Virus record (IMG/VR): IMGVR_UViG_3300037502_002506 | Coordinates: 2,324 to 66,323 of that record | DNA from: a virus | Reading direction: 5' to 3' (one strand) | Length of the DNA stretch: 64,000 nt | Shown here: one piece after another, positions 17,544 to 42,449 of the stretch | How positions within the stretch are numbered: position 1 is the first letter of the stretch | How the letters are laid out: each line of letters starts with the position of its first letter | The notes under the pieces: model-generated | The model's database searches: none | Seen by the model: only the letters and a program-made list of their open reading frames with translations | Told to the model about the DNA's origin: nothing | Program-made: the position numbers and the translations under genes

Positions 17544-17619
17544 ACATATTGCTCGTTTAGAGCATAAGGGGTTTGTGTTTCTATTTTCCGCCGAACTTTA
17601 AATGGTGTATAATGTAATT

Positions 17620-18285
17620 ATGGATCCCATTTCGAAAGAAGAAGATACAAGTACTTATAATTTTGACGCTTTAAAATCAAATGTTCCGTTTATTGTAAAT
17701 GGACAGGTTGTAGGACAACACCCAGACTATTTCGATAGATCTGAAATCTATAAGCAAAATTTTGAAAAAATGGGTAGCGATTCAAAAAATATTAAAATTA
17801 TTAAAAATTTTATTTCTGAAAGAGAATGTAAAATATTAATACAGTATATAAATACTTTTGCAATACCAAAGGAATATCCAGTTAAATGGGATGAAAAACT
17901 TGAACCAATTGTTACAAGAAAATCATATGTAAATGTAGAACCTACATATAAATATGTTCCATTAGTACAAGATTTACTAGAAAAAGAATACGGATTTCCA
18001 GTAAAAAATAAAAATGTATTTGTCGGTAGATGGGACGTAGGGGATAATTTAGATTTACATGTAGATGATTTAGGCACAACCAGTACTAATCATATGGCAA
18101 CACTTATATATTTAAACAGTGATTATGAGGGGGGAGAGATTGAGTTTCCAACTCACAACATATCTCACAAGCCTCAAGCAGGAGATCTCATAATGTTTCC
18201 TGGCAATATGCACTATGCTCATGAGGTAAAAACCATTACATCTGGATCAAGATATAGTATTCCGATGTGGTTTGAGTTTGTATAA
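17620..18285 (+). CDS. 2OG-Fe(II) oxygenase, prolyl-4-hydroxylase-like
   Basis: HVD...YLNSDYEGGE...HEV...RYS. Confidence 0.85.
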   Translation: MDPISKEEDTSTYNFDALKSNVPFIVNGQVVGQHPDYFDRSEIYKQNFEKMGSDSKNIKIIKNFISERECKILIQYINTFAIPKEYPVKWDEKLEPIVTRKSYVNVEPTYKYVPLVQDLLEKEYGFPVKNKNVFVGRWDVGDNLDLHVDDLGTTSTNHMATLIYLNSDYEGGEIEFPTHNISHKPQAGDLIMFPGNMHYAHEVKTITSGSRYSIPMWFEFV

Positions 18286-18288
18286 GTC

Positions 18289-18924
18289 ATGAATGATGAT
18301 TCATATATAATTAAAGATTGGGCTATAGTCACATTACCCCGTGTCGGAAGCCATTACTTACAGGAAAGAATATTTGCACATACGGGCAAATTGATAGTAA
18401 AGTATCATGAACCAAAACCTCAAACCTGGGGCTATGCAATTAAGGGATTGCTTAAACGCAACAACCGTTTTTGGAGCGGATTAGAGGTAGATAAATTAAA
18501 ATTAATAACCATAGTTAGAGACCCAAAAGATTTACTAATATCACATATTGCTTTATCTATAAAGCAAAAAGATACAAGATTTGTTATAGAAGATAATTTT
18601 TCATTAAATCTTGGTAATATTAAGGGTTTGATAGACAAATCTTGCAAACAGTACCTAGAACTTGAAGAAATTAGCAGTATAGTTATAGACTATAATCAAT
18701 TAGTATCATTTCCATTTGAGGTTACTTCAGCCGTAGCCAATATTTTAGAAATTGATATAATTACAGATAAATATGAGACACGCCTAGCAGATTCTGAAGG
18801 ATATTCCGTAAGTAGTAAAGAGTTACCACAATATGATGATGTAAAAAATGTTATAAATGATATGGATCTCTCAGATTTTTATCAGGCTTACAATAAAATA
18901 TTATCTAGGGCCATCACCCTATAA
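18289..18924 (+). CDS. Sulfotransferase-like P-loop protein
   Basis: PRVGSHYL and IVRDP motifs. Confidence 0.55.
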   Translation: MNDDSYIIKDWAIVTLPRVGSHYLQERIFAHTGKLIVKYHEPKPQTWGYAIKGLLKRNNRFWSGLEVDKLKLITIVRDPKDLLISHIALSIKQKDTRFVIEDNFSLNLGNIKGLIDKSCKQYLELEEISSIVIDYNQLVSFPFEVTSAVANILEIDIITDKYETRLADSEGYSVSSKELPQYDDVKNVINDMDLSDFYQAYNKILSRAITL

Positions 18925-19479
18925 AAATAAACGTAAAAACGCTATATAATATATCATCATGCTATCCCGTGAATCCAAAATAGACTCGATAATTGAAATT
19001 ATTCACGATCAAATAAAAGGAAAGCATAAGGATAAGTTGGCAAGAAAGTTAGCCGAAGAAATATTAGAGGCAATTGATGACGATGCCCCCAGTTGGTACG
19101 AGCATGGATAAAGAACAGATAAGGTATCTTTGCTATAGTTGTGGGGTTATATTTATGATAGATATTGATCTTGAGGATAAATGGGAACATTGTCCGAGAT
19201 GCTATAATAAATAGATGAAAGATGAGAAGTGCTATTATTGTGATAACAAGGCAGAATACAATCAGCCTGAAAAAGAGACAGGCATCATAGTTGGTGTTTG
19301 TTTTAAACATTTTACATATATTTATGCAGGATAGGGGCATATATGGCGATCAATACTAAAGAGTGGTCTAAAGAAACTAAAACAAGAATTATTCTTTCTA
19401 CCCTCGTTATTTTGGCAGCATTTGTATTTTTTTCTTTCATCTAATATAGTGTATAATTAAAAGATGATTCGGGGATGCT

Positions 19480-19737
19480 TTGTCACAAGAAAATATTAAA
19501 AAAAGAAAGTTGTTGGATGGTTCTGAGGTTAATGATTATGACTATCCAATTGATTTAATTTTACATACTAAGGCTCCAGGTAAATGGAAAGTTATTGATC
19601 TTGAAACTGGGCAAGAATATTTGGGTTCTGAAATAACACATAGCACCTTTGGAGAGATTTTACGCACCAAAGTAAGTAATGGTAAAATAGGATCTTGGCT
19701 TAAAACTAAAAGGAGAGACGGATCTAATGTCGAATAA
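19480..19737 (+). CDS. Hypothetical protein
   Basis: ORF overlapping next gene. Confidence 0.6.
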   Translation: MSQENIKKRKLLDGSEVNDYDYPIDLILHTKAPGKWKVIDLETGQEYLGSEITHSTFGEILRTKVSNGKIGSWLKTKRRDGSNVE

Positions 19738-21181
19738 ACCAATAACCTTCCACTGGATGTGGAGGAGACACTGGCAGATAAGTGACAGTATCGAAAACCT
19801 AGACCTTGATGGAATTCTACGTATGGCACAAGAATTAGATGGTGCAAACGTTAAGTCCGTTTTACTTCCATATGGTCCAGGTGGTATTGATTTTTCTTTA
19901 GTTATAAAAGACGCATTAGAAAAAACAAATCAATTAATTATGACAATTGCTTTACCTGCATATGGAACAAGTCCTGACTATGCTGCTAAAATTTTAGAAA
20001 CATTAAATCGTTTTGCTCCTGGAAGAATTGGAGTAAACCTTGTTGCTGGAAGATGGGGAGATGAAGGAAACAGCACTGCAGAAAAATTAGTAATAGATCA
20101 TTATATGCATGACTCTTCACTTATTGATACCCTTGCAAAAAGGGTGGCAATATCAGAAGTTTGGATGGATAAGGTTATGGCATTAATGGAAAAACATCAG
20201 CATAAAACACATATGGCTGTTGTTGGTTCCTCAGACACAACAATCAGGATAGCAAACAAGCATTGCGAATACATATACGTAGATGATAATCTGTTACGTA
20301 ATCCTGAGCAGTACGCAAAAATAACTAATTCAAAGCCAATCCTTATTGTAGATCCGCTAATAATTGAAAAGCCTGAAGACGTAGACAATGTTATCTATGA
20401 CGAGAATGCTCCGCCAAGAAAACAATTTCATCATATAATTGGAACACATGATGAGGTTGTTTCTGCAATTAAAGGTATTGCAGAAAAATTTAATATTTAT
20501 GATTTTATGATACATACAGATCAAAAAGATATTAGCAAATTGTTAAAACTAGTAAAGGAATTTGATAAAGTGCAACCTAACAACAATGATATGGAACATT
20601 TTGATATATCGAATGATGACAGAAGGCCTGAAGGATCTACAATTCATCATGAGGTTTTTGAAAAATTAGGATCTAAGCCAGATAATTTAAAAGTCTTTAC
20701 TAATTTTATTTCTCCAGAACAATGCAGCGCTATTATAGAAAGCATAAAAAATTCAGAGCCATCGTCTGAAAAACCAGTTCAGTTTAGCCCTGATGGGAAT
20801 CCCCTGACTTTTAGAAAAGACTGGGATATAAATCCGTACATAGATACATACAATGACATTGTTCGTGGTGTTATTGAGGCAGAATATCCAGTTAGAGTAA
20901 AAAGCAGAAGTGCAAAAATTGCAGAGTGGACAAAGAATGATGTTTATGATTTACACATTAATGATCTAGGGATAAATGATTTTAATAATATGTCTGTCAC
21001 TATATATCTTAATGATGATTTTGAAGGCGGAGAATATTATTTTCCCACTCAAAATAAAATCTTTAAACCAAAGGCTGGAGATTTAATTATTTTTCCAGGG
21101 AACATGCACTATAATCACATTATAAGCAAAGTTACTTCTGGATCAAGATATACTATTCCCTTATGGTATACCTTTATTTAA
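19727..21181 (+). CDS. Luciferase-like monooxygenase domain fused to 2OG-Fe(II) oxygenase
   Basis: N-term GRIGVNLVAG LLM-like; C-term HIND, YLNDDFEGGE, HII, RYT. Confidence 0.65.
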   Translation: MSNKPITFHWMWRRHWQISDSIENLDLDGILRMAQELDGANVKSVLLPYGPGGIDFSLVIKDALEKTNQLIMTIALPAYGTSPDYAAKILETLNRFAPGRIGVNLVAGRWGDEGNSTAEKLVIDHYMHDSSLIDTLAKRVAISEVWMDKVMALMEKHQHKTHMAVVGSSDTTIRIANKHCEYIYVDDNLLRNPEQYAKITNSKPILIVDPLIIEKPEDVDNVIYDENAPPRKQFHHIIGTHDEVVSAIKGIAEKFNIYDFMIHTDQKDISKLLKLVKEFDKVQPNNNDMEHFDISNDDRRPEGSTIHHEVFEKLGSKPDNLKVFTNFISPEQCSAIIESIKNSEPSSEKPVQFSPDGNPLTFRKDWDINPYIDTYNDIVRGVIEAEYPVRVKSRSAKIAEWTKNDVYDLHINDLGINDFNNMSVTIYLNDDFEGGEYYFPTQNKIFKPKAGDLIIFPGNMHYNHIISKVTSGSRYTIPLWYTFI

Positions 21182-22100: not shown

Positions 22101-22649
22101 ATGATTTATCACAAGCACTTATTGGTTAATGCTAAAGTAAAGAATCCAATAAATACAGAAGAAGAGGGAATTAATTTCCTTCGCAATTTAGTCGAAAAGA
22201 TCGACATGAAGATTATTAAGGGTCCATTTGCATCCTATGTGGATAAAGATGGCAATAAGGGTCTAACAGGAATTGTAATGATTGAGACCAGCCATATTGC
22301 TTTTCACATATGGGATGAAGTAGACCCAGGATTAATTCAATTTGATTTATATACTTGTGGTCAACTAGAATTCAATAAAGTTATTAATATCTTCAAAGAA
22401 ACATTTAATGTTGTTGAATTTGATTATGTATTATTTGATCGTGAAAATGGATTTGTTGTAGAACAAAGCGGTCGGGAAGCCGATGGAGTTCAATACAACC
22501 AATACCCTGACGGCAAAACAGTCCCAAAAGAAATGCTAAATCCAAATATTGGAGGGTGGTTAAAACCAAAAAATCATCAAGATGATACAGACTTTGACCC
22601 TTCAATCATAGAAGAAATATGGGGTAAAAAAATAGGAAAAAATAAATAG
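22101..22649 (+). CDS. speD: S-adenosylmethionine decarboxylase proenzyme
   Basis: GLTGIVMIETSHIAFHIWDE...DLYTCG. Confidence 0.8.
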   Translation: MIYHKHLLVNAKVKNPINTEEEGINFLRNLVEKIDMKIIKGPFASYVDKDGNKGLTGIVMIETSHIAFHIWDEVDPGLIQFDLYTCGQLEFNKVINIFKETFNVVEFDYVLFDRENGFVVEQSGREADGVQYNQYPDGKTVPKEMLNPNIGGWLKPKNHQDDTDFDPSIIEEIWGKKIGKNK

Positions 22650-22764
22650 ATATTAAAAACAATTACAAATCCTAATATAAAAAATAGTTTAAATGGTAAA
22701 GATATTTGACAATTTATCTTGAATATTGTACAATTATAATATAACCTAAACAAAAGGATTTAAA

Positions 22765-23961
22765 ATGAAAAAAATTATCTACATTGTTTTTGCAAGTTTA
22801 TTATTTTCTTCATCTCCATCAGTAGCAGTAGAGTTTGGCCAAGATGCGACTGGAGATCCAACTGCGGTGAAGGTTGGAGGCGCATCTGGGTTTTTGTATT
22901 CCGAGAGAATTGTTATAACTGTTGGGCACGTAATTGATAGCACTGGCGGTCTGGCTTATTGGGAGCGAAGTGGTGTCATATATAAGCCAGGCATTGCTAG
23001 TATTGCAGGGCAAAGAGGCTACAAAGTTAAAAAGGTAATTATTCCAAGTACCTATGTTTACCCAGATTATGCAAATAATATAATTTTCGATGATCTCGCC
23101 ATAATTGTTTTGAGTGAGGACATTCCCGTAACAAAGAAGGCTGTTCTTGCAACAGAGGAGCAGATGAAACGTTTTGTGAGGGAAAAGTCTAAAGTTGAGT
23201 TGGTTGGTTATGGAATTACAAATGTAAATCAGAGAAATAGGCCATGGGCAGAAATCATTAATCGGCCACCAAACAGACTTACAAGCACTTTATTGTCTCC
23301 TGAAGAGGTGCTTAACTTCTACAGACAATACACAGTGGATTGGAAGAAGATCAATAAGCCAGGTGTTTACGGCATAGTTCAAAATCGTGACCTGAAGCAG
23401 AGTCACATTTGTGATGGAGATTCAGGATCAGTATTTTTTGTCGAAGAAAATAATGTTCGTTATGTTCTTGGAACAACTGGACTTGGACTGGTCAATAATA
23501 ATTGTCAGGCACCAGAAAGATTGTCTCCGTTTCCTTCGATGAGTTGGATTGATCCCAAATCAAAGTTACCAAGTTTAATAAAAGAGGCAGAAGAGATTGT
23601 TGCTGAAGATAGGAAAATAGAATTCGCTCAGGCAGAAGCAGTACGTCTTGCTGCAGAGTTGAAAGCAGAGCAAGAAGCAGAAGCGAAGGCAAAGGTTGAA
23701 GCAGAGGCCAAAGCAAAGGCTGAGGAAGAAGCACGGGCAAAGACTGAAGCAGAACTAAAAGCCAAGGCAGAAACGGAAGCGAAGGCTGAGGCAGAAATTG
23801 CAGCAAAAAATGTTGCAGCATTAGCAACTAAAAAAGCATTTGCTGGCAAAAGATGCACTAAACTAAACAAAACTACAACTGTAGTAAAATTGGTCAAGTT
23901 TACTTGTGTCAAAAAGGGCAATAAACTTGTTTGGAATAACGGGGTAATCATAAATAACTAA
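22765..23961 (+). CDS. Secreted trypsin-like serine protease with Ala/Glu/Lys coiled coil
   Basis: Signal peptide; TVGH, DDLAI, CDGDSG triad; EAEAKAK repeats. Confidence 0.75.
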   Translation: MKKIIYIVFASLLFSSSPSVAVEFGQDATGDPTAVKVGGASGFLYSERIVITVGHVIDSTGGLAYWERSGVIYKPGIASIAGQRGYKVKKVIIPSTYVYPDYANNIIFDDLAIIVLSEDIPVTKKAVLATEEQMKRFVREKSKVELVGYGITNVNQRNRPWAEIINRPPNRLTSTLLSPEEVLNFYRQYTVDWKKINKPGVYGIVQNRDLKQSHICDGDSGSVFFVEENNVRYVLGTTGLGLVNNNCQAPERLSPFPSMSWIDPKSKLPSLIKEAEEIVAEDRKIEFAQAEAVRLAAELKAEQEAEAKAKVEAEAKAKAEEEARAKTEAELKAKAETEAKAEAEIAAKNVAALATKKAFAGKRCTKLNKTTTVVKLVKFTCVKKGNKLVWNNGVIINN

Positions 23962-23971
23962 ATAGTTTTAG

Positions 23972-24045
23972 GGAGCAGTAGCCAAGTTGGTCAAGGCCCC
24001 GAACTCATAATTCGGCTATCGTAGGTTCAAGTCCTACCTGCTCTA
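23972..24045 (+). tRNA. tRNA with CAT anticodon (elongator Met or Ile2)
   Basis: GGAGCAG/CTGCTCT acceptor, CCGAA-CTCATAA-TTCGG, TTCAAGT loop. Confidence 0.9.
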
Positions 24046-24048
24046 CAA

Positions 24049-24206
24049 GGTCTATCCAGAATTCGACTCAGGATAGATACAACTGCCCCGAAACTTTCGC
24101 AGGTGGAAGTCGTTAGATAACCCAGTCGAATGGGCCTAAGCAGACAGCATCTAGGGAGCAGAGCCAGTGGTTATATTCGCCGTAGAAACGGGTAGCGTGA
24201 CTGGCA
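24049..24206 (+). ncRNA. Candidate structured RNA with kissing loop
   Basis: Five predicted stems; loop TTCGAC complementary to loop GTCGAA. Confidence 0.6.
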
Positions 24207-24225
24207 CTTATAATTGCGTAGTTTA

Positions 24226-24298
24226 GCCCTTGTAGCCCAGTGGTAGAGGCACACGACTTAAAATCGTGACAGCGTTGGTTCGAATCCAACCAGGGGCA
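24226..24298 (+). tRNA. tRNA-Leu(TAA), short variable loop
   Basis: GCCCTTG/CAGGGGC, CACGA-CTTAAAA-TCGTG, TTCGAAT. Confidence 0.85.
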
Positions 24299-24326
24299 CG
24301 ATGGTATACTTGATGTGGAGGAATAA

Positions 24327-25085
24327 ATGATTATACAAATTATTGGGCTGCCTGGTTCTGGCAAGACAGCACTTGCACAGGCACTTAAAGAAAGAATTAA
24401 TGCTATTCATCTTAATGCAGATGAAGTTAGATCAACGGTAAACTCCGATCTAGGATTTAGCAATGAAGATAGAATTGAGCAAGCAAGAAGAATGGGAGAA
24501 ATGGCTAGGCTTATTGCCAAGCAAAATGTTGCCCCTGTCATTGTTGATTTTGTTTGTCCAACTGAAGAAGCGAGAGAGGCATTTGGTTTTGCAGATTTAG
24601 TGGTATGGGTTGATAGAATTAAGCAGGGCAGATTTGAAGATACCAATAAACTTTGGGCAGACCCTTGGCATTTTCATATAAGAATTCTTGATGGTTATAC
24701 TATAGAAGAAGAGGTTAATACTGTAATTCAAACTGGATCATTATTTGACTGGTCTGCTCCAACTACTTTGCAACTTGGAAGATATCAACCTTGGCACGAA
24801 GGGCATCAGGCTTTAAAAGAAGAAGCCCATAAGAGAACACCACAGGTTCTTGTCGGTGTTCGTAATACCTATAAAACATCTGAAAAGGATCCATTGAAAT
24901 ATGACGAGGTGTCCGAATTTATTAAGCAGGATAATCCATTTAAAGATACGTTAGTATTACGACTACCCAATATTACCAATGTTGTTTATGGTCGTGATGT
25001 AGGATATAAGATTGAACAAGTAAAGTTAGGAGAAGACATTGAGTCTATTAGTGCTACTCAAAAGCGTAAAGAAATGGGTATTTGA
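24327..25085 (+). CDS. Adenylyl-sulfate kinase-like domain fused to HxGH nucleotidyltransferase
   Basis: GLPGSGKT, ADEVR...DLGFS..DR; GRYQPWHEGH. Confidence 0.75.
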   Translation: MIIQIIGLPGSGKTALAQALKERINAIHLNADEVRSTVNSDLGFSNEDRIEQARRMGEMARLIAKQNVAPVIVDFVCPTEEAREAFGFADLVVWVDRIKQGRFEDTNKLWADPWHFHIRILDGYTIEEEVNTVIQTGSLFDWSAPTTLQLGRYQPWHEGHQALKEEAHKRTPQVLVGVRNTYKTSEKDPLKYDEVSEFIKQDNPFKDTLVLRLPNITNVVYGRDVGYKIEQVKLGEDIESISATQKRKEMGI

Positions 25086-25150
25086 TAATTCAAGTAATTC
25101 CTGGGCAGATAAAGAAGCAGAATTATTTATTAACTTTAAAGAAAAAATAG

Positions 25151-25354
25151 ATGAGAGTAACGAAGAGTAGATCGTTTGCTAAAGCCTGGAGTTATAGAGT
25201 ATTTGGCACCTTGACTTCTTTTCTTGTTGTGTATATAATTACTGGAGAGGCTGTTTTGGCTACCGCTATTGCATTTTGGGAAACCGTATTAAAAATAGGT
25301 GTATATTATTGGCACGAAAGAATATGGGACAAAATACAGTGGGGTAGAAAATAA
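25151..25354 (+). CDS. DUF2061 membrane protein
   Basis: RSFAKAWSYR...YYWHERIW. Confidence 0.8.
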   Translation: MRVTKSRSFAKAWSYRVFGTLTSFLVVYIITGEAVLATAIAFWETVLKIGVYYWHERIWDKIQWGRK

Positions 25355-25357
25355 AAT

Positions 25358-25429
25358 ACCTCTGTAACTCAGCGGAAGAGTAGCGGACTTCTAATCCGTT
25401 TGTCGCAGGTTCGATTCCTGCCAGGGGCA
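25358..25429 (+). tRNA. tRNA-Arg(TCT)
   Basis: GCGGA-CTTCTAA-TCCGT; TTCGATT; A1:C72 mismatch. Confidence 0.85.
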
Positions 25430-25445
25430 CTACAATTAAATACTT

Positions 25446-25521
25446 TGGTCTGTAGTTCAGTTGGTAGAACACTCGACTGTTAATCGAGATGTCGCAGGAT
25501 CGAGACCTGCCAGACCAGCCA
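25446..25521 (+). tRNA. tRNA-Asn(GTT)
   Basis: TGGTCTG/CAGACCA, CTCGA-CTGTTAA-TCGAG, encoded CCA. Confidence 0.9.
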
Positions 25522-25546
25522 TGATACAATTTAGTGTGGAGTTAAT

Positions 25547-27151
25547 ATGTCAATAAACAAAATAGTAATTGTTGGCGGTGGATCTGCTGGATGGATGTCA
25601 GCAGCAACACTAATAAAAGCATTTCCAGATAAAGACATAAGTGTAATAGAATCTAAACATGTTCCAATTATAGGTGTTGGAGAGTCTACATTGGGTCAGA
25701 TTAAACGCTGGACAGATTTTATAGGATTACAAGATAAAGATTTTTTAAAGGCTACAGATGCTACATATAAATTAAGCATAAAATTTACTGATTTTTATAA
25801 AAAAGATTCTGGCGGATTTCATTATCCATTTGGAACCCCAATGGTATATAAAAATAGAAATCCATTTTACGATTGGCATATTAAAAAATATATATCTCCA
25901 GAGACACCAGTTACAGATTTTGTAGAATGTTTATTTCCAGCAGCAGCATTATTTGCAAAAAATAAATACTCTGAAAATCTTAATAATGAGTTCGATAATT
26001 TTGATACTAAGAGGGCTGTTGCATATCATTTTAATGCTGTTAAGTTTGGGCAGTGGCTTAAGGATTTTGTATGTTTGCCAAATGGAGTAAAACATATTGA
26101 AGCAACTGTTACTAATGTTATTAAAGATGATGAGGCAGGAATTAAATATCTTGAATTAGATAATAACGAAATTGTTAATGCAGATTTGTTTGTAGATTGC
26201 ACAGGCTTTAAAAGTCTGTTACTTGGTGAAACTTTAAATGAACCATATATTTCTTTTCAACATTTAATTCCAAATAACGGTGCTTGGGCTGCACAGGTGC
26301 CGTACAAGGATAAAGAAAAAGAAATGGAATCCTATACAAACTGTACAGCCCTTGGAAATGGATGGTGCTGGAATACCCCACTATATTCTAGATTAGGAAC
26401 TGGATATGTCCATTCAACAAAATTTATTACAAAAGAACAGGCGCTAGATGAGTTTAAGCAATACCTAATGTCAGATAAAATGATAATTCCTAGAACTAAA
26501 GAAGAAGTCGAAGATTTAAAGTTTAGATACATTGACATGAAAATTGGTATTCACGAGAGAACATTTGTAAAAAATGTAGTAGCAATAGGAATGGCTGCTG
26601 GTTTTATTGAGCCACTAGAATCTAACGGCTTATATACAGTACATGAATTTTTGTTTAAGTTAATAGATATATTACAAAGAGATAATATAAGTCAGTTTGA
26701 TCGAAACATGTATAATCAATCAACTAAGTCTATATATCAAGGATTTGCTAAATTTGTATCCTTACATTATTTATTGTCTCACAGAGATGATACAGAATAT
26801 TGGAGAAGCATTAAAAATGGAACCACAATAGATGTGGAAAATGAAATGCTAACTTCTTTATTTGATAAAGAAGATCCTTTTAATGATTTAGTTCAAAGAT
26901 ATATGACAAAACAGGAGCACCCTTTCGGTCCTGCTGGAATAACATACATAGCCACTGGAATGAACTTAAACATGATGAATATTGCTAGGGCAAAAGCGGA
27001 TTACTTTGGAACAGGAATACCGCTAGGACATTCGGCCTTTCAATTTAATTCAATCTGGGAAGAAAGAAAGCAAAAATGGAAGAATAATGCAATTAATGCA
27101 CCGTCCTTATATGAGTATTTAAAAAATAATTATTTTGACGGAGAAGAATAA
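25547..27151 (+). CDS. Tryptophan-halogenase family flavin-dependent enzyme (PrnA/RebH-like)
   Basis: GGGSAG, GVGEST, TYKLSIKF lysine, WCWNTP, FIEPLESNG. Confidence 0.85.
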   Translation: MSINKIVIVGGGSAGWMSAATLIKAFPDKDISVIESKHVPIIGVGESTLGQIKRWTDFIGLQDKDFLKATDATYKLSIKFTDFYKKDSGGFHYPFGTPMVYKNRNPFYDWHIKKYISPETPVTDFVECLFPAAALFAKNKYSENLNNEFDNFDTKRAVAYHFNAVKFGQWLKDFVCLPNGVKHIEATVTNVIKDDEAGIKYLELDNNEIVNADLFVDCTGFKSLLLGETLNEPYISFQHLIPNNGAWAAQVPYKDKEKEMESYTNCTALGNGWCWNTPLYSRLGTGYVHSTKFITKEQALDEFKQYLMSDKMIIPRTKEEVEDLKFRYIDMKIGIHERTFVKNVVAIGMAAGFIEPLESNGLYTVHEFLFKLIDILQRDNISQFDRNMYNQSTKSIYQGFAKFVSLHYLLSHRDDTEYWRSIKNGTTIDVENEMLTSLFDKEDPFNDLVQRYMTKQEHPFGPAGITYIATGMNLNMMNIARAKADYFGTGIPLGHSAFQFNSIWEERKQKWKNNAINAPSLYEYLKNNYFDGEE

Positions 27152-27173
27152 GTATGATAGTATATTTATTGTT

Positions 27174-27247
27174 GGTCCGTTAGTTCAGTTGGTTAGAACG
27201 CTACCCTGTCACGGTAGAGGTCGTCGGTTCAAGTCCGATACGGATCG
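27174..27247 (+). tRNA. tRNA-Asp(GTC)
   Basis: GGTCCGT/ACGGATC, CTACC-CTGTCAC-GGTAG. Confidence 0.9.
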
Positions 27248-27287
27248 CTAGAGCCTGGTGTATCCGTTATTGGTGTATAATGATTGT

Positions 27288-27857
27288 ATGCAACAAAATA
27301 ATTATTTGGTAAATGAGTGTGTCCCTCACCTACTTACATATAATAGAAGTGGGATGCATTTTTTTGATGATAATCTATATGAAATAGAAAAAATTCATTT
27401 TACTCAATCACACCTTATAGAACAACTATTTGATGAAAACAACAATAAGAAAAGAGTGATAGTAACAATAGCAAGAGAGCCGACTGGAAGTATTCCTTCT
27501 TATATAGCACATCTTGGTAATTATTATTTAGAAAATGCTATCGATTTTGGAATTAGAGAAAAAATAACAGAGTATATACTAATGTATTCTTTCTTATGTG
27601 AACATGCAGACTATGTCATAGATTTTAATGATCTCATAAAATATCCAAAAATTGTAATTAAAAAATTATTAGAGTTATTAAATATAGATAAAGATAAATA
27701 TGTTTATTTTGAAAGAGACATTATACCTAGAAGTGAACACTATATTCCATCAAGCAAGTCGTTACCAAACTATAAAGAAAATCTGTTAGATGGCTATAAT
27801 CTTGATTTATGTTATTATTACTATCATAAACTTTTAGAAAAGAAAATTATAATTTAG
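27288..27857 (+). CDS. Sulfotransferase-like protein
   Basis: TYNRSGMHF, IAREP; paralog of 18289 and 29210. Confidence 0.5.
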   Translation: MQQNNYLVNECVPHLLTYNRSGMHFFDDNLYEIEKIHFTQSHLIEQLFDENNNKKRVIVTIAREPTGSIPSYIAHLGNYYLENAIDFGIREKITEYILMYSFLCEHADYVIDFNDLIKYPKIVIKKLLELLNIDKDKYVYFERDIIPRSEHYIPSSKSLPNYKENLLDGYNLDLCYYYYHKLLEKKIII

Positions 27858-27920
27858 TTTTATTTGTAACTTTACAAAACTACTGAATCAATGTATAATG
27901 GTAATATGTCTACCAATCAT

Positions 27921-27995
27921 GGCACTATCGTCTATCGGATAGGACATCGCCCTTTCACGGCGGAAAGACGGGTTCGATTCCCGTTAGTGCTACCA
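27921..27995 (+). tRNA. tRNA-Glu(TTC)
   Basis: GGCACTA/TAGTGCT, TCGCC-CTTTCAC-GGCGG, encoded CCA. Confidence 0.9.
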
Positions 27996-28036
27996 GTTTG
28001 GTATAATAGAATGACTACTAGTAGAAAGAAGAGCAA

Positions 28037-28606
28037 ATGAGAACTATCGGAGATAAGTTAGAGCCGTTTCGTATCATTGGAGTAAAACCAGGTAGACTGG
28101 ATGCTTCTGATGATGTATTTGAAGTATTGGATGAAAAATCATTTCCAGGAAAATGGAAGGTAATTGTATATTATCCAAAGGATTTTACATTTGTATGCCC
28201 GACAGAAATTGTGGCATATGATAAATTAGTTAACGATTTTAATGATCGTGACGCAGTATTGTTAACAGGATCAACAGATAACGAGTTCTGTAAAATTGCA
28301 TGGCGTAACGCACATGAAGATTTAAAAAAGACTAATTCTTGGTCTTTTGCAGATCAAATTCGTGAATGGTCTTGGGCAGAAGATGAAGGCTATACTGGAC
28401 TTGCAAACCAATTAGGGATCTTAAATAAAGATGGTGTTGCACTTCGTGCTACCTTTATTGTTGATCCAGATAATGTTATTCAACATGTAACTGTAAATAA
28501 TCTTAATGTAGGTCGTAGTCCAGAAGAAACTCTTCGTGTACTTGATGCCTTGCAAACAGGAGAACTTTGTGCCTGCAATAGAAGCCTTGGTGGAGAAACA
28601 CTGTGA
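28037..28606 (+). CDS. ahpC: Peroxiredoxin AhpC
   Basis: YPKDFTFVCPTE, GELCACN. Confidence 0.92.
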   Translation: MRTIGDKLEPFRIIGVKPGRLDASDDVFEVLDEKSFPGKWKVIVYYPKDFTFVCPTEIVAYDKLVNDFNDRDAVLLTGSTDNEFCKIAWRNAHEDLKKTNSWSFADQIREWSWAEDEGYTGLANQLGILNKDGVALRATFIVDPDNVIQHVTVNNLNVGRSPEETLRVLDALQTGELCACNRSLGGETL

Positions 28607-29115
28607 GTTGGGTAGATGAAGTAAAGGAACTTGTTCCTGAGTATGCTAAAGACATTAAGTTAAATCTTGATGCTGTGATCAATAGAAGTACTTTTGATTA
28701 CGATTACTCTTCATCCCTTGCACTTGCAGCAGCCCTTGCAACAGGTAATCAGGACATTGTCGCTATGGTTTCTGATGGTGTTACAGATGAGGTAGAAAAA
28801 AATGCAGCCTTTACAGCAGCAGCCTTGATGGCACAGAACAATGTATGGTATCCATATACTGAGATGGCAGATGATCCAAATCTAACTGGATTACCAGCAC
28901 AACTTAGAATGAATGCTATTGCATCTCATGGCGGTACAACTAAGGCGAAGTTTGAGTCGTATGCGCTTATTGCATCTATTATTGGAAAATGTCATTTCTG
29001 TGTAAAGGCTCATTATGAAACCTTAAAACAAGAAGGATATACAACTGAACAACTTCGTGATATCGGAAGAATTGCTGCAACAATTAATGCTATCGCCAAG
29101 GTTGTCGTAGCGTAA
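28603..29115 (+). CDS. ahpD: Alkyl hydroperoxide reductase AhpD
   Basis: PEYAKDIKLNL, MAQNNVWY, CHFC; overlaps ahpC. Confidence 0.9.
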   Translation: MSWVDEVKELVPEYAKDIKLNLDAVINRSTFDYDYSSSLALAAALATGNQDIVAMVSDGVTDEVEKNAAFTAAALMAQNNVWYPYTEMADDPNLTGLPAQLRMNAIASHGGTTKAKFESYALIASIIGKCHFCVKAHYETLKQEGYTTEQLRDIGRIAATINAIAKVVVA

Positions 29116-29120
29116 TGGTT

Positions 29121-29192
29121 GCCTCCTTAACTCAGGGGTAGAGTACTCGCCTTGTAAGCGAGATGTCGTAGGTTCAAATCCTACAGGAGGCT
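29121..29192 (+). tRNA. tRNA-Thr(TGT)
   Basis: GCCTCCT/AGGAGGC, CTCGC-CTTGTAA-GCGAG. Confidence 0.9.
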
Positions 29193-29209
29193 CTGATATG
29201 ATTAACAAT

Positions 29210-29809
29210 ATGAGTAAAGAGATACATCTTATTACATATCCTAGATGTGGATCAACTTATCTTTCTAAATTATTAAGTGACAGTTTTCAAAAAGAAATTT
29301 ATAGAAGACATCTTAATGGAACAAAGAAGATGGATCCCGAATATAGTAAAGATAACGATTATTATAATGATGCAGGATCAAAATCTTTTAAAGAAAACAA
29401 TTATGCAATTACCGTATTAAGAAATCCTGTAGACTCTATCTCATCTTTATGTTCTATGGAAAATTTTTATAATAAAAATATTGATATTGATTTTAATATT
29501 AAACAATATACTGAATATTATATTTATTTTTTTAAAGATATTTTAAAAATTGTAGATTTAATGATAGATTTTAATGATATCAATATACATAAAGATAATA
29601 TTTTAAAATATGTAGGTGATAAAACTAATAATAGTATTATAAATAAAAATTATTCACCAGATATATCAGATCTTTCAGATCATCAATTTTTAAAATCTTC
29701 TAAAATAAATAAAAACTATGAATGCATTAAAGAAAAGGTTAAAAATAATGACTTAACTGAATGCTTTAACGTTTATAATAGTTTGATAACAGAATGCAAA
29801 AAATTTTAA
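29210..29809 (+). CDS. Sulfotransferase-like protein
   Basis: TYPRCGSTYL, VLRNP. Confidence 0.55.
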   Translation: MSKEIHLITYPRCGSTYLSKLLSDSFQKEIYRRHLNGTKKMDPEYSKDNDYYNDAGSKSFKENNYAITVLRNPVDSISSLCSMENFYNKNIDIDFNIKQYTEYYIYFFKDILKIVDLMIDFNDINIHKDNILKYVGDKTNNSIINKNYSPDISDLSDHQFLKSSKINKNYECIKEKVKNNDLTECFNVYNSLITECKKF

Positions 29810-34299: not shown

Positions 34300-34893
34300 T
34301 CATCTTGTTTCTCTTACAGAATCAGGAATTGTATTTTCTGTAGATTCATATTCATTTATATTTCCACGATAAGGTGAACCTTCAAAATTAAACCACAATG
34401 TAGAAGAATATCGCTCTCCAGTATTTTTAAGCACTTCATGCAAATAATGCTGATTGCTAGGGAATGTAACAAAACTATTTGCTTTTGGCTTAATTTTTAA
34501 ATCATGCCACGGGAAGTTTATTTCTCCGCCAATATAATCATCATTAATGTAGTAGATTATAGCAAAATCTCCTGTTGTATCTACATGTTTATTCATGGAA
34601 TAGTCTGTTTCAAATTTAATTAAATGAAGTTCGTGTTTGTCAAAAACACGAAACTTTACATTAAAATGTTCTTCACACTTCTTAAAGCCAAGCCTAAAAA
34701 CTTTATCTAATATGTCAATAATTTCTAAGGACAACCCTTTATCAAAACTAAAGTATTTGACTCCCCAGGGCTGAGTATGCCAATCCTTAACATTAACCGT
34801 ATAGTCAAGTAATTTTTTATGATCTTCTTCAGATAAAACATTTTCTGTAATATGTATATTTTCTACAGAGTTTCCAAAATCATATTCTGTCAT
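34300..34893 (-). CDS. 2OG-Fe(II) oxygenase
   Basis: HVD, YINDDYIGGE, HEV, RYS. Confidence 0.85.
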   Translation of the reverse strand: MTEYDFGNSVENIHITENVLSEEDHKKLLDYTVNVKDWHTQPWGVKYFSFDKGLSLEIIDILDKVFRLGFKKCEEHFNVKFRVFDKHELHLIKFETDYSMNKHVDTTGDFAIIYYINDDYIGGEINFPWHDLKIKPKANSFVTFPSNQHYLHEVLKNTGERYSSTLWFNFEGSPYRGNINEYESTENTIPDSVRETR

Positions 34894-34896
34894 AAT

Positions 34897-35499
34897 TTAT
34901 CCATACCATTCTTTATTTTTATTAAATGTAGAGCCAGTAAACTGAAACCATATAGTAGAACTATATCTATCACCTTTAAAGATTGTGGACACTTCATGCA
35001 TATAACCTTCGTTTCCAGGGAAAAAGATTAAACTATTAGGATCTGGTTTAATGTTTAAATTAAATTTTGGAAAACAAATTTCTCCACCAATATAGTCATC
35101 GTTAATGTAATATATTACTGCAATATGGTTTTCTTCACTTGACAGCGTGTCTACATGTGCATCCAGGAACATGCCTTGTCTAAATTTAATTAAATTAAGT
35201 CTATGTTTGTCTACTGGATTGATCTCTACACCATATAAATTTGTGCACTTTTCATAGGCAAGTGTAAAAACTTTATTTAATATTTTAACAATTTCTTCTG
35301 GTAAATCGTCATGGAAAACAGATTCAGAATCCCATGGTTGTCGTCTCCACATCTTATTATTTTTTACATAATCAAGTATAATTTTATGTTCTTCTTCAGA
35401 CAAAACATTTCGTATGTATTGTATATTTTCTTCAGAGTCTCCTATTTTGGCAACATTATTTAAATAAATGTCATCTTTTTCAGAAGGATCGATAATCAT
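34897..35499 (-). CDS. 2OG-Fe(II) oxygenase
   Basis: HVD, YINDDYIGGE, HEV, RYS. Confidence 0.85.
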   Translation of the reverse strand: MIIDPSEKDDIYLNNVAKIGDSEENIQYIRNVLSEEEHKIILDYVKNNKMWRRQPWDSESVFHDDLPEEIVKILNKVFTLAYEKCTNLYGVEINPVDKHRLNLIKFRQGMFLDAHVDTLSSEENHIAVIYYINDDYIGGEICFPKFNLNIKPDPNSLIFFPGNEGYMHEVSTIFKGDRYSSTIWFQFTGSTFNKNKEWYG

Positions 35500-35540
35500 A
35501 TACTTATTTTACCATACTCTCTAGGATACAACTTTTTGTC

Positions 35541-36194
35541 CTAATATTTCAATTGTTGGTTATAGATCTCACGAAGTTCTGTTGTTCCTAAAAATGTAGA
35601 ACCAGCAAACTGAAACCTCATTGGAAAGGTGTATCTAAATCCTTCTAAAACCTCAAGTACTCCGTGAACATAGTTTTCGTTACCAGGAAACATAATTAAA
35701 CTATTTGATTTAGGTTTAATTTTTAAATTATAATCTGGAAATTCTAATTCTCCGCCTTTATAGTTATCATTAATATAATACATACAGACAATATGTTGGT
35801 GTTTTTGAGCGTCTGTATCTATATGGGGGGTCATCTTACTGCCCCTGCTCCACTTAGTTAAAAGATATTCACCCATAAAATTATCATTTGCTTCTATATC
35901 TATATCATAATAATCTATACATTTTATTCTAGCAGTTTGAAATATTTTTTTTAAAAGTTTAAGAATATTTTCTGGAATTGCTTCTTTATGGGTTCTTTCG
36001 GTGGTCCATGGCTCTTTAATCCAAATTTGATTAGAATTATTTACAAAATAAGATAATGTTTGATATTCTTCATCAGATAAAAAATTATCTACAATATATA
36101 CATTTTTTGCAGAACTTCCTAACTTAGCAACATTTTTTAAATAAATTTCATCTTTTTCTAAATCAAGACGTTTTCTAAAAACTTCTTCATCCAT
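35541..36194 (-). CDS. 2OG-Fe(II) oxygenase
   Basis: HID, YINDNYKGGE, HGV, RYT. Confidence 0.85.
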   Translation of the reverse strand: MDEEVFRKRLDLEKDEIYLKNVAKLGSSAKNVYIVDNFLSDEEYQTLSYFVNNSNQIWIKEPWTTERTHKEAIPENILKLLKKIFQTARIKCIDYYDIDIEANDNFMGEYLLTKWSRGSKMTPHIDTDAQKHQHIVCMYYINDNYKGGELEFPDYNLKIKPKSNSLIMFPGNENYVHGVLEVLEGFRYTFPMRFQFAGSTFLGTTELREIYNQQLKY

Positions 36195-36433: not shown

Positions 36434-36729
36434 TATAGCAATTCCTCTGGCTGTTTTCTAATAGCAGTAATAATTGCCTTTGTGCCTTCCCACCTTACAC
36501 GACCAAGGCAACCTACATTATACTTTATATCACCTTCATACTTAGATGAAATAGCATACGCATACCCATGAATTTCAAAGTCACTTGCTAATGCTTGATT
36601 TCCATTAATAAAAATTCTCCATACAAGCGGATCGTCTGCCTCTGCTTTAGTATTAAATCTTAAAATAATATCATCATATGGGCGCATCCATCTATCTTTT
36701 ATGATAGTCCAAATATATTTAATCTTCAT
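36433..36729 (-). CDS. Hypothetical protein
   Basis: Coupled operon ORF. Confidence 0.65.
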   Translation of the reverse strand: MKIKYIWTIIKDRWMRPYDDIILRFNTKAEADDPLVWRIFINGNQALASDFEIHGYAYAISSKYEGDIKYNVGCLGRVRWEGTKAIITAIRKQPEELL

Positions 36730-37487
36730 AGACCCATTTCTTTTCTTTTTTGTGTTGCAGAAATAGAGTGAATTTGTTCGCCTAAATCTAATTGCTCAAC
36801 CTTATAACCTACATCACGACCACATACAATGTTTGTAATGTTTGGTAATCTTAGCACCATTGCACTATCCATAAACTTATCTTTATCAATATAACCCTTT
36901 ACCTGATCAAAGGTAAATGGGTCTTTCTCACTTGTGTTATAGGTATTACGGACTCCTACTAGTACCTGGCTTGTTCTCTTCCCCGCTTCTCTGTAGAGTG
37001 CGTGATGCCCTTCATGCCATGGCTGATATCTACCAAGCATTAATGTTGTTGGTGCAGACCAATCATGTAATTTAAATTGTTTAATAATTTCTGTTGCCTT
37101 TTCGTCAGGATTCCATTCGTGACTAATAAAAGCCATATCAAAATTATTAGGAACTTCAAATATCTTATTAGTATCTTCGAATCTGCCCTCTTCGATAGTT
37201 TCCATATAAATCAAAATATCTGGTTTACCAAATGCTGCACGAGTTAATTCTGTCGGACATACAAAATCTACAATTACTGGCGCTACATTTTGCTTTGCAA
37301 TCAACCTCGCCATCTCTCCCATACGACGAGCCTGTTCAATCCTATCTTCAGCGGTAAATCCAAGATCAGAATTAACCGTAGCCCTGACTTCATCTGCATT
37401 AAGATGAATTGCATTAATGCGTTCTTTAAGTGCTTTTGCTAGTTCTGTTTTTCCAGAACCAGGAAGTCCTATAATTTGAATTATCAT
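36726..37487 (-). CDS. Second APS-kinase-like / nucleotidyltransferase fusion
   Basis: Close paralog of 24327..25085. Confidence 0.75.
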   Translation of the reverse strand: MIIQIIGLPGSGKTELAKALKERINAIHLNADEVRATVNSDLGFTAEDRIEQARRMGEMARLIAKQNVAPVIVDFVCPTELTRAAFGKPDILIYMETIEEGRFEDTNKIFEVPNNFDMAFISHEWNPDEKATEIIKQFKLHDWSAPTTLMLGRYQPWHEGHHALYREAGKRTSQVLVGVRNTYNTSEKDPFTFDQVKGYIDKDKFMDSAMVLRLPNITNIVCGRDVGYKVEQLDLGEQIHSISATQKRKEMGL

Positions 37488-37771
37488 TTTTTCTCCATTG
37501 TTAGTGCTTGCCAAATCTCTGACCAATTATCGGAATCCTTGTGACTGTTAAATTCTTTTGATATTGATCCACCCTCTAAGTATATCCCACCCCAAACTCC
37601 CCACTCTTTACTAGAAATGCCTACGGCAAAACAAGTTTTTACTACTGGGCAGTCCTGACATAACTTATCTATGGCAGGTCTTAAAGACTCTTCTTCTTCA
37701 TATTTTTCAAAAAATATATTTGTGTCGTAATCAACACAAGCAGCGCTATCTTTCCATTTTAGTTTGTGCAT
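37484..37771 (-). CDS. whiB: WhiB family transcription factor
   Basis: Four Cys (C..CQDCPVVKTC) and GVWGG. Confidence 0.9.
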   Translation of the reverse strand: MHKLKWKDSAACVDYDTNIFFEKYEEEESLRPAIDKLCQDCPVVKTCFAVGISSKEWGVWGGIYLEGGSISKEFNSHKDSDNWSEIWQALTMEKK

Positions 37772-40283: not shown

Positions 40284-41705
40284 CTACCTGCAGATTGTAA
40301 AGTTATATGTATTTTCCCATGCCGTGATGTCTTTTTCATCATTCAATAAAGGCTGTCCCTTTATGTTTAAACTTGTATTTAGTAGTATTGGAACCCCAGT
40401 CATAGTATACCAATTAGATAGAACCTCGTATAGACCTGGATGCTGTTGTCTATTGACCGTCTGCACCCTTGAGGTTCCGTCTTTATGAACAACAGATGGT
40501 ATTTTGTCTGGCCTTAAGCATTTTACAGCATACTGCATGTATGGCGATGAAAATCTCATGTCAAACCATTTATCAGCGTGTTCTTCCATAACTACTGGAG
40601 CAAAAGGTCTAAATAGTTCTCTTTTTTTAATAAGATTAACTTTATCTTTTATGAGTGGGTCTCTAGGATCAGCAAAAATTGATCTATTGCCTAAAGCCCT
40701 AGGACCATACTCTGCTCTTCCTGTTGCTACTGCTGCCACCTTATCTCTAATTAAACTAGTAATAATTTGATTTACTGGATACTCCCCGCCTAAATCATGA
40801 CCAAGGTATGGGCTTTTCCAATTTAAATGCTTTCCATAAAACGCTGCTGCTGCACCAAGAGATGATCCTGCGTCTCCAGGATTGGGCATAATCCATACAT
40901 CATCAAACATTCTCCAAAGCATCGTATTCGCTGCACAATTTAAAGCACATCCCCCCATAAAAACAAGATTGCGCTTGCCTGTAAGTTTTTGTGCCATCGA
41001 CATAAAGTTTACTAATCTATTTTCATATACCCGTTGTACTGCTGCTGCAATATCAAACTTATCTTGTTCTGTAATGGGCATATCCCAATCAAAAATGCCT
41101 TTATGAAAGTTATATTTTTGTTTTTGTAAGTCTGGGAAATATTCATTTACCTTAAGAAAATATTTTGACCAATCTCCATATGCCGCCATGCCCATAAATA
41201 TATATTCTTCTTCATTAGGTTTTAGTCCAACTAACTGCGTAAATGCCGAATAAAATAATCCAAAACTAAATGGATAATTTTTTTTATAAACAGATTTTAT
41301 ATCTGATCCTTGACCCACCCAAATACTTGAAGTGTTATATTCTCCGATTGCATCTAATACAACTATGACCGCATCATTAAACTTACTTGTATAGTACCCA
41401 GCGCAAGCATGTGAATAATGATGATTAAAATATTTAATTGGTAAATCCATTGGGATATTCGGCTTCCAATCAGCAGCCCCACCCTTTAAAAATATTCTTG
41501 ATCTTTTCAACTGAGGATGCTCGTAGTATGCAATATGTGTTGGCGTCCCATAATTTAAGAGATCTAGGTAAATATCTTTATTGTTATACCAGTCATTTTT
41601 TTGCTTGCTGTACCTTTCTGCATGTCCAGAAAATAAAATTTCTCCGTCTTTAATTAAAGATACAGAAGCGTCATGAGAAGTTTCATTTATTCCAAGTATT
41701 ATCAT
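40284..41705 (-). CDS. Carbamoyltransferase (CmcH/NodU family)
   Basis: HDAS, ERYS, HHYSHA, GGCALN, GPRALGNRS, FRPFAP, NTSLN. Confidence 0.92.
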   Translation of the reverse strand: MIILGINETSHDASVSLIKDGEILFSGHAERYSKQKNDWYNNKDIYLDLLNYGTPTHIAYYEHPQLKRSRIFLKGGAADWKPNIPMDLPIKYFNHHYSHACAGYYTSKFNDAVIVVLDAIGEYNTSSIWVGQGSDIKSVYKKNYPFSFGLFYSAFTQLVGLKPNEEEYIFMGMAAYGDWSKYFLKVNEYFPDLQKQKYNFHKGIFDWDMPITEQDKFDIAAAVQRVYENRLVNFMSMAQKLTGKRNLVFMGGCALNCAANTMLWRMFDDVWIMPNPGDAGSSLGAAAAFYGKHLNWKSPYLGHDLGGEYPVNQIITSLIRDKVAAVATGRAEYGPRALGNRSIFADPRDPLIKDKVNLIKKRELFRPFAPVVMEEHADKWFDMRFSSPYMQYAVKCLRPDKIPSVVHKDGTSRVQTVNRQQHPGLYEVLSNWYTMTGVPILLNTSLNIKGQPLLNDEKDITAWENTYNFTICR

Positions 41706-41789
41706 TTTAATAAATATACCTTCTATTATTGTCTGCCTTTTTTATTTTACGAATTAAAAAATAAAGTTTAATTTTTTTAATTATTTTTT

Positions 41790-42449
41790 TCATGCTTCTC
41801 CTGTCGAATAGACCATTTCTCTCATATTATGATACCAATGAGGCAAGGAATACCTAGAACCGCTTGTTATTGGATATACTTCGTGAACATATAAAAAGTT
41901 AGAAGGAAAAAAAATAATACTTCCTGCAGGAGGCTTAATTTTTATTTTAGAATTTTGAAACTCTATCTCTCCACCCTCATAGTCATCGTTTAGATAACTT
42001 ACAGTGGAAAGAATCCTACTGCTAATGCCGTGATCAATATGTGCAGGCAAAAATCCGCCAACTTCGTATCTTAATAAATGAATGCTGAATTCTCTATTTT
42101 TTATATTTTTTCCACAAAAGGGATAAAGTGTGTTTGCATAATGATTGGTAGCAAAATCTAAAGATTCATATAGTTTTTTGGATATACTTAGTTGCTCATT
42201 AAAATAATAATCGCTAGGCTTTATGGCATGCCGTGGGGGTAAAAACTTTTGCCAACAAAAAGTTTCCATAGTTTTAGCGCTTTCATTTTGCCATGGCTTC
42301 CATGGCTTTATATTAGTAAAAGATGTTCCATGTTCTTTATTCTCGTATCTTTTATCTAAAGAGTTAAGGTCTTCTATAATTTGTCCAGGTTCTTTAATTA
42401 CATTTTTATATAATACTAAACCAAGATCTAAAATTTCATATTCTAGCAA
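41790..42449 (-). CDS. 2OG-Fe(II) oxygenase
   Basis: HID, YLNDDYEGGE, HEV, RYS; TTG start inferred. Confidence 0.85.
   Translation of the reverse strand: MLEYEILDLGLVLYKNVIKEPGQIIEDLNSLDKRYENKEHGTSFTNIKPWKPWQNESAKTMETFCWQKFLPPRHAIKPSDYYFNEQLSISKKLYESLDFATNHYANTLYPFCGKNIKNREFSIHLLRYEVGGFLPAHIDHGISSRILSTVSYLNDDYEGGEIEFQNSKIKIKPPAGSIIFFPSNFLYVHEVYPITSGSRYSLPHWYHNMREMVYSTGEA

Follow-up and report, generated by a model that had tools for sequence, protein, structure and literature searches.

A covariation-supported structured RNA in the tRNA array of a lake virus

It has been known for fifty years that the tRNA clusters of phages contain a few stable RNAs other than tRNAs, the species 1 and species 2 RNAs of T4. 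Some phages also carry YrlA-type (RF02553) Y RNA-like RNAs, structured molecules of about 100 to 200 nt with tRNA-like features. In T4, the genes for species 1 (rnaC, 139 nt) and species 2 (rnaD, 119 nt) are arranged head-to-tail after tRNA-Arg on the tRNA strand (NC_000866), and the excerpted text of one account describes the function of both RNAs as still unexplained (PMC9697503). Theta ribozymes occupy a comparable position: excerpts of PMC10879173 place them within 5 nt of tRNAs, with more than 70% adjoining tRNA-Met, a suppressor tRNA or tRNA-Leu, and name the first position of J4/2 as the catalytic cytosine of theta ribozymes and of ribozymes like that of hepatitis delta virus (HDV). The stretch of viral DNA analyzed here comprises 64,000 nucleotides (positions 2,324 to 66,323 of IMG/VR record IMGVR_UViG_3300037502_002506) and is referred to below as the window; it is part of a 66-kb IMG/VR contig. 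Its tRNA-Met(CAT) and tRNA-Leu(TAA) genes are separated by a spacer of 179 nt, of which ~160 nt are occupied by a non-coding element on the tRNA strand. The comparison of this element with its relatives makes it very probable that it is a real, selected structured RNA.

Variants and fold of the element

The family comprises 11 distinct variants on 17 IMG/VR viral contigs, with pairwise identities of 63 to 94%; the window element shares 65 to 83% identity with the other variants, and every record carrying the element contains a single copy. Relatives were fetched via the two protein genes flanking the tRNA pair. The identical spacer is present in two further contigs, and a blastn search of 87 loci recovers identical copies only. 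A pattern restricted to the flanks (the 3' end of tRNA-Met, a gap of 155 to 185 and the 5' end of tRNA-Leu) leads to four more contigs with a 167-nt spacer that is ~78% identical to that of the window. In the first pairwise comparison, all 14 substitutions in paired columns are compensatory and no pair is broken; the exchanges lie in the 5' hairpin, in CCCA/TGGG and in the long-range helix CUGCCCC/GGGAGCAG. A covariance model built from two sequences (R1) recognizes seven further distinct variants at 120 to 193 bits among candidates supplied by three patterns (an internal block, the tRNA-Met end plus AAGG, and the two loops plus linker). A second model built from nine sequences (R2) and run over whole records adds three more contigs, and all 12 rows score 169 to 197 bits. 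Several pattern matches were discarded: chance matches in L176 and L179 after use of the covariance model or inspection, those in L217, L219, L223 and L224, which lie inside coding regions, the one in L230 as a chance match, and all 16 matches in genome contigs (L189-L204), which give no hit with the covariance model.

The original prediction, made from the letters of the window, placed a structured non-coding RNA of ~160 nt between the two tRNAs, on their strand, and described the spacer as richer in G+C than its surroundings. Both statements hold, with a G+C content of 0.51 for 24047-24207 compared to 0.35 for the whole window and with conservation and covariation across the 11 variants. The same prediction proposed a search for homologues in related phages, which returned these conserved and covarying variants, and a comparison with Rfam, which returned no matching family.

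Covariation was counted in the R2 alignment A7 (12 rows, 11 distinct sequences) for a structure of nine helices, the loop-loop pair included, with 45 pairs and 491 pair cells. Standard pairs occupy 98.6% of these cells, compared to 89.3 +/- 0.8 in shuffles, and 15 of the 45 pairs show double-sided changes, compared to 9.0 +/- 1.6; none of 500 shuffles reaches either observed value, a significance that the shuffle controls overstate because the 11 sequences are related. Double changes are found in 51 cells, compared to 16.6 +/- 3.2 in the shuffles. Control structures in which the partners are slid by one to three columns show only 0 to 4 pairs with double changes and 27.7 to 40.6% paired cells. 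Apart from P4 and the loop-loop pair, every counted helix was already part of the model used to align A7. For P1, a structure-free MAFFT alignment (A6) shows the same exchanges. P4 is absent from both models; it was found by a blind scan of column pairs and agrees with the RNAalifold drawing of the first two sequences. The features of the locus are as follows.

24047..24207, + strand: conserved structured RNA, core element (models R1 and R2)
24050..24078, + strand: hairpin 1, made of P1, P1b and the loop AAUUCGA (24060-24066)
24050-24056/24072-24078, + strand: P1, seven pairs, four with double changes, 100% of cells paired
24058-24059/24067-24068, + strand: P1b, apical helix, A-U alternating with G.U
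24062-24066/24126-24130, + strand: loop-loop pair, one one-sided change
24078..24085, + strand: run UACAACUG, invariant in the 11 distinct variants, made of the last P1 base (24078), the UACAA linker and the first three PC bases
24083..24161, + strand: central long hairpin, made of PC, P4, P3a, P3b and the apical loop GUCGAA (24125-24130)
24083-24089/24154-24161, + strand: PC, long-range helix CUGCCCC/GGGAGCAG with A24157 bulged, two pairs with double changes
24102-24105/24148-24151, + strand: P4, two pairs with double changes
24113-24116/24136-24139, + strand: P3a, two pairs with double changes
24121-24124/24131-24134, + strand: P3b, three pairs with double changes
24163..24205, + strand: hairpin 3, made of P5, its extension and P5b
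24163-24171/24197-24205, + strand: P5 plus a two-pair extension (24170-24171/24197-24198), two double and three one-sided changes, 100% of cells paired
24180-24183/24188-24191, + strand: P5b, invariant inner stem CCGU/ACGG with an NAAA loop
23972..24046, + strand: tRNA-Met(CAT), directly 5' of the element (ARAGORN; Rfam tRNA, 66.5 bits)
24207..24225, + strand: non-conserved tail, whose first ~15 nt match the start of the ~100-nt extension of L215 and L218 (covariance model alignments)
24226..24299, + strand: tRNA-Leu(TAA), directly 3' of the element (ARAGORN; Rfam tRNA, 65.6 bits)

The aligned sequences support an architecture of three domains in a row: a hairpin at the 5' end, an irregular long hairpin in the center and, at the 3' end, a hairpin that contains a large internal loop. 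The domains are joined by the invariant linker UACAA and then by a single A, and every helix with covariation support is nested. The original prediction had implied a layout of five hairpins. All of its motifs are found where it had placed them, and three of its helices are borne out by covarying pairs: TCTATCC/GGATAGA (four pairs), CCCA/TGGG (three) and GCCAGT/ACTGGC (two). The other two fail, since CTGC/GCAG (24083-24102) is broken by a change from GCAG to GCTG in the first homologue and CCTA/TAGG (24135-24155) is missing in most variants; the segments concerned belong instead to PC, P3a and P4. Some other pairings were set aside. The P2' hairpin (UUUC/GAAG) contained in R1 is not conserved and excludes the better-supported P4 in L218 and L239. 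The scan column pairs 72-74/132-134, 9-11/72-74 and 34-36/131-133 clash with stronger helices and were attributed to correlation by lineage, and a pairing of the P5 internal loop with the AGAUAAC linker is possible in the window alone.

The most constrained parts of the element are its two apical loops, (A)AUUCGA in domain 1 and (N)GUCGAA in domain 2. As the original prediction had pointed out, TTCGAC (24062-24067) and GTCGAA (24125-24130) are exact reverse complements. The pair UUCGA/UCGAA spans five positions, or six if the closing G-C of P1b opens; for two 7-nt loops, the chance of a 6-nt complement is ~0.0008 and that of a 5-nt complement is ~0.007. The pairing is kept in all 11 distinct variants (55 of 55 cells), with four of the pairs invariant and the fifth changing from U-A to U.G in L243, and UUCGA (24062-24066) is itself the same in 11 of 11. 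Nine of the 10 kissing-loop columns are invariant, compared to 20 of 75 other unpaired columns (Fisher P = 0.0002), and the stems right below both loops vary freely. The loops are thus strongly constrained and able to pair; the data are consistent with a kissing loop, and a tertiary contact between the two is probable. Alternative causes of the conservation are recognition of both loops by one protein, the presence of two T-loop-like motifs that are each kept for their own sake, or dimerization driven by the UCGA palindrome.

Relation to described RNAs

Searches of RNA family collections assign the element to no described group. Rfam 15 at the gathering score returns only the 7 tRNAs in the whole window. 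At an E value of up to 10, hits between 23940 and 24330 fall on the two tRNAs only, from RF00005 and, below threshold on the antisense strand, from RF04354. No Rfam model at an E value of up to 1 hits the element in its own orientation in eight other variants; the sole overlap there comes from MicC, which scores 32 bits, below its cut-off of 90, on the other strand of L232 and L235. RF04354 (Plastid-ycf2 5'UTR) gives sub-threshold hits of 23 to 41 bits (cut-off, 65.7) antisense to many of these tRNAs, and its model seems similar to a tRNA in antisense. ARAGORN at the default, 80% or 60% thresholds finds no tRNA on the + strand of the spacer, and RF00005 gives no hit there at an E value of up to 10; in its transfer-messenger RNA mode (-m), ARAGORN reports 0 genes.

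The theta ribozymes resemble the element in their location, as excerpts of PMC10879173 describe them a few nucleotides from phage tRNAs, often tRNA-Met or tRNA-Leu. Such placement, with a site within ~5 nt of a tRNA end, is found in 10 of the 11 variants; position alone does not define the family. The element differs from them in having no double pseudoknot, no P2 and no J4/2 to which a catalytic cytosine could be assigned, and only the first ~30 of its ~160 nt would lend themselves to a comparison. The HDV-like or theta topology, which the original prediction could not fit to the sequence, is indeed not available: only 1 to 2 nt lie between P1 and the apical helix 24058-24059, leaving no room for the 5' strand of P2, and the covarying helices are all nested. 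The CUGANGA core of the hammerhead is absent, although GAAA follows PC. UCUA closes the strand leading into PC in every variant, and together with P4 the domain forms a single irregular hairpin, not the three-way junction of a hammerhead.

The species 1 and species 2 RNAs of T4 are the closest analogue, by position only. They too have no Rfam family, and they show no sequence or structure similarity to the element. A search of the T4 tRNA region with R2 and filters off gives a best score of 5.1 bits (E value, 0.12), outside both genes. A canonical T-arm and an acceptor-like closure form the end of rnaC and are lacking in the element. T4 infects Escherichia coli, whereas the family described here comes from lake viruses related to actinophages. 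The folds of the two T4 RNAs, both held by L251 10909-11172, have z values of -4.6 (rnaC) and -0.8 (rnaD).

YrlA RNAs resemble the element in being structured and of similar size, and they are associated with tRNA-like features. They differ in that RF02553 gives only sub-threshold hits overlapping true tRNAs, and none on the element, and in that no TROVE gene accompanies it: Ro60/TROVE (PF05731) has no match in G000, G001 (93% complete) or G002 (100% complete), while control genomes respond.

A screen of IMG/VR v3, the same data source, is described in excerpts of PMC10690425 as yielding 8495 covarying intergenic motifs of 29 to 151 nt, some of them tRNA-like (the DNAVirus_N catalogue). The catalogue may already list the element, whole or in part, under a number, which would add nothing to the knowledge of it. 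Full-text literature, to the extent of the passages retrieved, holds no description of such an RNA, with the alignments of PMC10690425 left uncompared.

A different insert of 135 nt lies between tRNA-Met and tRNA-Lys(TTT) in lake viral contigs (L220 471-605, - strand, and the same in L222). It begins with CAAGG like the element, shows a long-range closing helix of 13 bp and a fold z of -5.27, and is not matched by R1. This insert may be another RNA of tRNA arrays.

Genomic setting and carriers

The element lies on the tRNA strand in all cases. Ten of the 11 variants start no more than ~5 nt past a tRNA 3' end, and in the window P1 starts 4 nt past the end of tRNA-Met. The preceding tRNA is tRNA-Met in seven variants and tRNA-Asn in three (four contigs). 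The next feature varies: five variants are followed within ~20 nt by tRNA-Leu, tRNA-Arg or tRNA-Trp, two (L215 and L218) by the ~100-nt extension and then a tRNA, and three (L232, L235 and L249) by a ribosome-binding site and an open reading frame (ORF). L238 has no tRNA within 1.5 kb; a terminator-like hairpin precedes its element, and a run of 15 T follows 9 nt past P5. The element is therefore retained without tRNA neighbors, and this copy looks like a free-standing small-RNA gene. No conserved protein neighbor is found among the variant contexts, and the flanking ORFs differ.

The extension downstream of the core is lost wholly or in part in other lineages with the core intact, and the tail is absent in L170 and L178. 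In L218 (339-440, - strand), the extension gives no tRNA or Rfam hit and a fold z of -1.4. One contig of the X16 metatranscriptome links Met and Leu across ~260 other letters and may correspond to the long form with the extension.

Upstream of the array, consensus matches place a strong promoter-like site at 22706-22734, before the gene for a trypsin-like serine protease (22765-23961, + strand) with a long low-complexity tail rich in Ala, Glu and Lys. Judged by consensus matches only, there is no intervening promoter-like or + strand terminator-like site between 22706-22734 and the tRNAs. No terminator-like site for intrinsic termination is found on the + strand in 22600-25600, and a T-run after the element occurs in one of the 11 variants.

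The window holds 7 tRNAs in a loose array with metabolic genes in between (ARAGORN and Rfam). This array is highly plastic among close relatives, with differences in order and number (window 23972-29193; L086, L088, L178 and L209). tRNA-Ile(TAT) precedes tRNA-Leu in some contigs and follows it in others, and protein genes lie scattered among the tRNAs. Two paralogues (24327-25085, + strand, and 36726-37526, - strand) combine an APS-kinase-like P-loop N terminus with a weakly cytidylyltransferase-like C terminus, and lake viral contigs abound in relatives of the former, with over 589 hits. Tailoring-type genes are dense at 17602-21181, 25547-27151, 29198-29809, 34300-36194 and 40284-42554; they include six genes with 2OG-Fe(II) oxygenase domains, a tryptophan-halogenase-family protein, two sulfotransferase-like proteins, a carbamoyltransferase, an AdoMet decarboxylase and a peroxiredoxin with a CMD-family partner.

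The carriers are large lake viruses (about 100 to 123 kb); among cultured phages, those of Streptomyces are their nearest kin. Genes of the virus include ones for a DnaE-type polymerase, RecA, a GP88-like protein and a CHAP lysin, as well as many for 2OG-Fe(II) oxygenases. Its DnaE is ~55% identical to the closest ones, which come from Streptomyces phages of ~127 kb that lack the element, and this relationship points to a freshwater actinobacterial host. Sequencing runs with the exact stretch are all aquatic, mainly lake water, which hints at the habitat. Outside this group, blastn against 50,697 phage records, with a 501-nt region and three element variants, gives tRNA hits or nothing, and R2 finds no match in the Streptomyces phages BillNye and Bmoc. 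Among metagenome contigs with the trypsin-like neighbor, none of 78 loci carries the element by R1 or R2 (78 of 79 loci, with L166 left out); tRNA-Met follows the trypsin-like gene in four loci, and the next feature is tRNA-Ile in L088, tRNA-Leu 4 nt further on in L089 and the end of the contig in the ambiguous L090 and L091.

Explanations and their weight

The explanation favored by a modest balance of the evidence, taken as a whole, is a gene for an uncatalogued structured non-coding RNA of ~160 nt, an accessory cassette of the tRNA array that is released and acts in trans. The element would be transcribed within the tRNA precursor and freed by host nucleases of tRNA maturation. One cut would be made by RNase P, at the 5' end of the downstream tRNA; on its other side the element would come free as the 3' end of the upstream tRNA is trimmed. 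Release by tRNA processing is suggested by the position of the element. The loop-loop contact would fold the RNA into a compact shape, and the RNA would act in trans as a stable small RNA or an RNA-protein particle. Its company and its T-loop-like loops allow a guess that the target lies in tRNA or translation biology.

Several observations weigh against this explanation, besides the kinship of the sequences and the prior model behind A7 noted above. Nothing indicates a target, and transcription, processing and stability of the element are matters of inference; contigs of two metatranscriptome runs (X15 and X16) cover the flanking tRNAs only, which are common to many organisms. The loop-loop pairing contains no double change. 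The minimum free energy of the window sequence alone is -47.6 kcal/mol compared to -45.3 +/- 4.5 for dinucleotide shuffles (z, -0.52), 51 of 200 of which fold equally well, and the reverse strand likewise gives no thermodynamic signal against shuffles (z, -1.03). As the single-sequence fold is at chance level, the decisive evidence is the comparison across variants. The distribution is narrow and the element dispensable: it occurs in only 7 of 80 records fetched via the neighboring kinase gene, a lower bound because many records are fragments. Six related records are at least 83% complete, of which G001 and G002 carry the element and G010, G026, G041 and G065 (83 to 99% complete) do not. The same near-identical tRNAs are joined by 3 to 4 nt in L087, L089 and L070-L074, and tRNA-Ile(TAT) occupies that junction in L086 and L088.

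A role restricted to the tRNA operon in cis, in the order or efficiency of processing, the protection of the precursor, or attenuation or termination, is an unlikely explanation. It fits the embedding of the element in the array on the same strand, the T-run after the 3' hairpin in L238 and the stretch free of promoter-like and + strand terminator-like sites between 22706-22734 and the tRNAs. The contexts are nevertheless varied, since the element follows Met or Asn and precedes tRNA-Leu, Arg, Trp or Ile, a protein gene or nothing; its loops and linkers, invariant across these contexts, exceed the needs of a passive spacer, the solitary copy in L238 lacks any tRNA on which it could act, and the T-run is seen in only one of 11 variants. 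That same copy, with no tRNA to process, also speaks against a catalytic or self-cleaving RNA that would mature the adjacent tRNAs in a theta-like role, as does the maturation of the same tRNAs by relatives without the element. Catalysis of this kind appears quite improbable, as no ribozyme family of Rfam matches the window (E value of up to 10) or eight variants (E value of up to 1), no HDV topology can be drawn and the CUGANGA core is missing. It would explain why 10 of 11 variants begin 4 to 5 nt beyond the 3' end of a tRNA, a placement shared with theta ribozymes according to excerpts of PMC10879173, and the invariant single-stranded runs and probable tertiary contact are ribozyme-like.

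Explanations that deny a selected RNA of this fold fare worse. A feature of the DNA, such as a site of recombination or attachment for mobile tRNA cassettes or an inverted repeat that binds protein, with an incidental RNA fold, could account for presence or absence at exact tRNA junctions in highly rearranged arrays and for TTCGAC/GTCGAA, an inverted repeat in DNA as well. It is very improbable, because G-U pairs are kept on one strand (the G.U pair 24050/24078 in 11 of 11 variants, and G.U or U.G pairs in P5 and P4) and therefore indicate selection on the + strand RNA; in addition, a DNA site has no need of 15 double changes spread over a structure of nine separate short helices, the element is single copy in each genome and the alignments show no flanking direct repeats. 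Little credence likewise attaches to one or two decayed tRNA genes or to non-functional filler. A length of about two tRNAs, the T-loop-like UUCGA and the presence of tRNA-Ile(TAT) at the same junction in L086 and L088 are compatible with decay, whereas local alignment to tRNA-Ile scores 14 compared to 14.5 +/- 2.2 for shuffles, the tRNA searches of the + strand are negative down to the 60% thresholds of ARAGORN and up to an Rfam E value of 10, and the compensatory changes show purifying selection on a fold other than a cloverleaf. The covariation across the aligned sequences effectively refutes this reading. A small protein gene has next to no probability. Four variants each contain one stop-free frame; two of them share theirs, on the minus strand, and those of the remaining two differ, so that no frame is open in all four. 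The other 7 of 11 have stops in all six frames, and single-base indels distinguish the variants.

The explanation by a released RNA acting in trans can be carried further, to a founding member of a phage RNA class that uses host tRNA maturation. In this extension, UUCGA/UCGAA would give the RNA a shape like the tRNA elbow, with which it would decoy or bind a host factor that recognizes tRNAs, for example an anticodon nuclease or other tRNA-directed defense, a modification enzyme or an RNase; alternatively, the RNA would be a new ribozyme. So specific a role is doubtful.

The RNA family is new and supported by covariation, and its kind, the non-tRNA RNAs of phage tRNA clusters, has been known since T4 and is unexplained. 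It adds a well-supported motif to the catalogue of phage RNAs and offers a second, independent system, unrelated to the RNAs of T4, in which the role of such RNAs can be approached with and without tRNA neighbors. If the loops do mimic or bind tRNA T-loops, the family would be tied to the arms race over tRNA-targeting defenses, and either an elbow mimic or a new ribozyme would provide a first handle on the unexplained non-tRNA RNAs of phage tRNA clusters.

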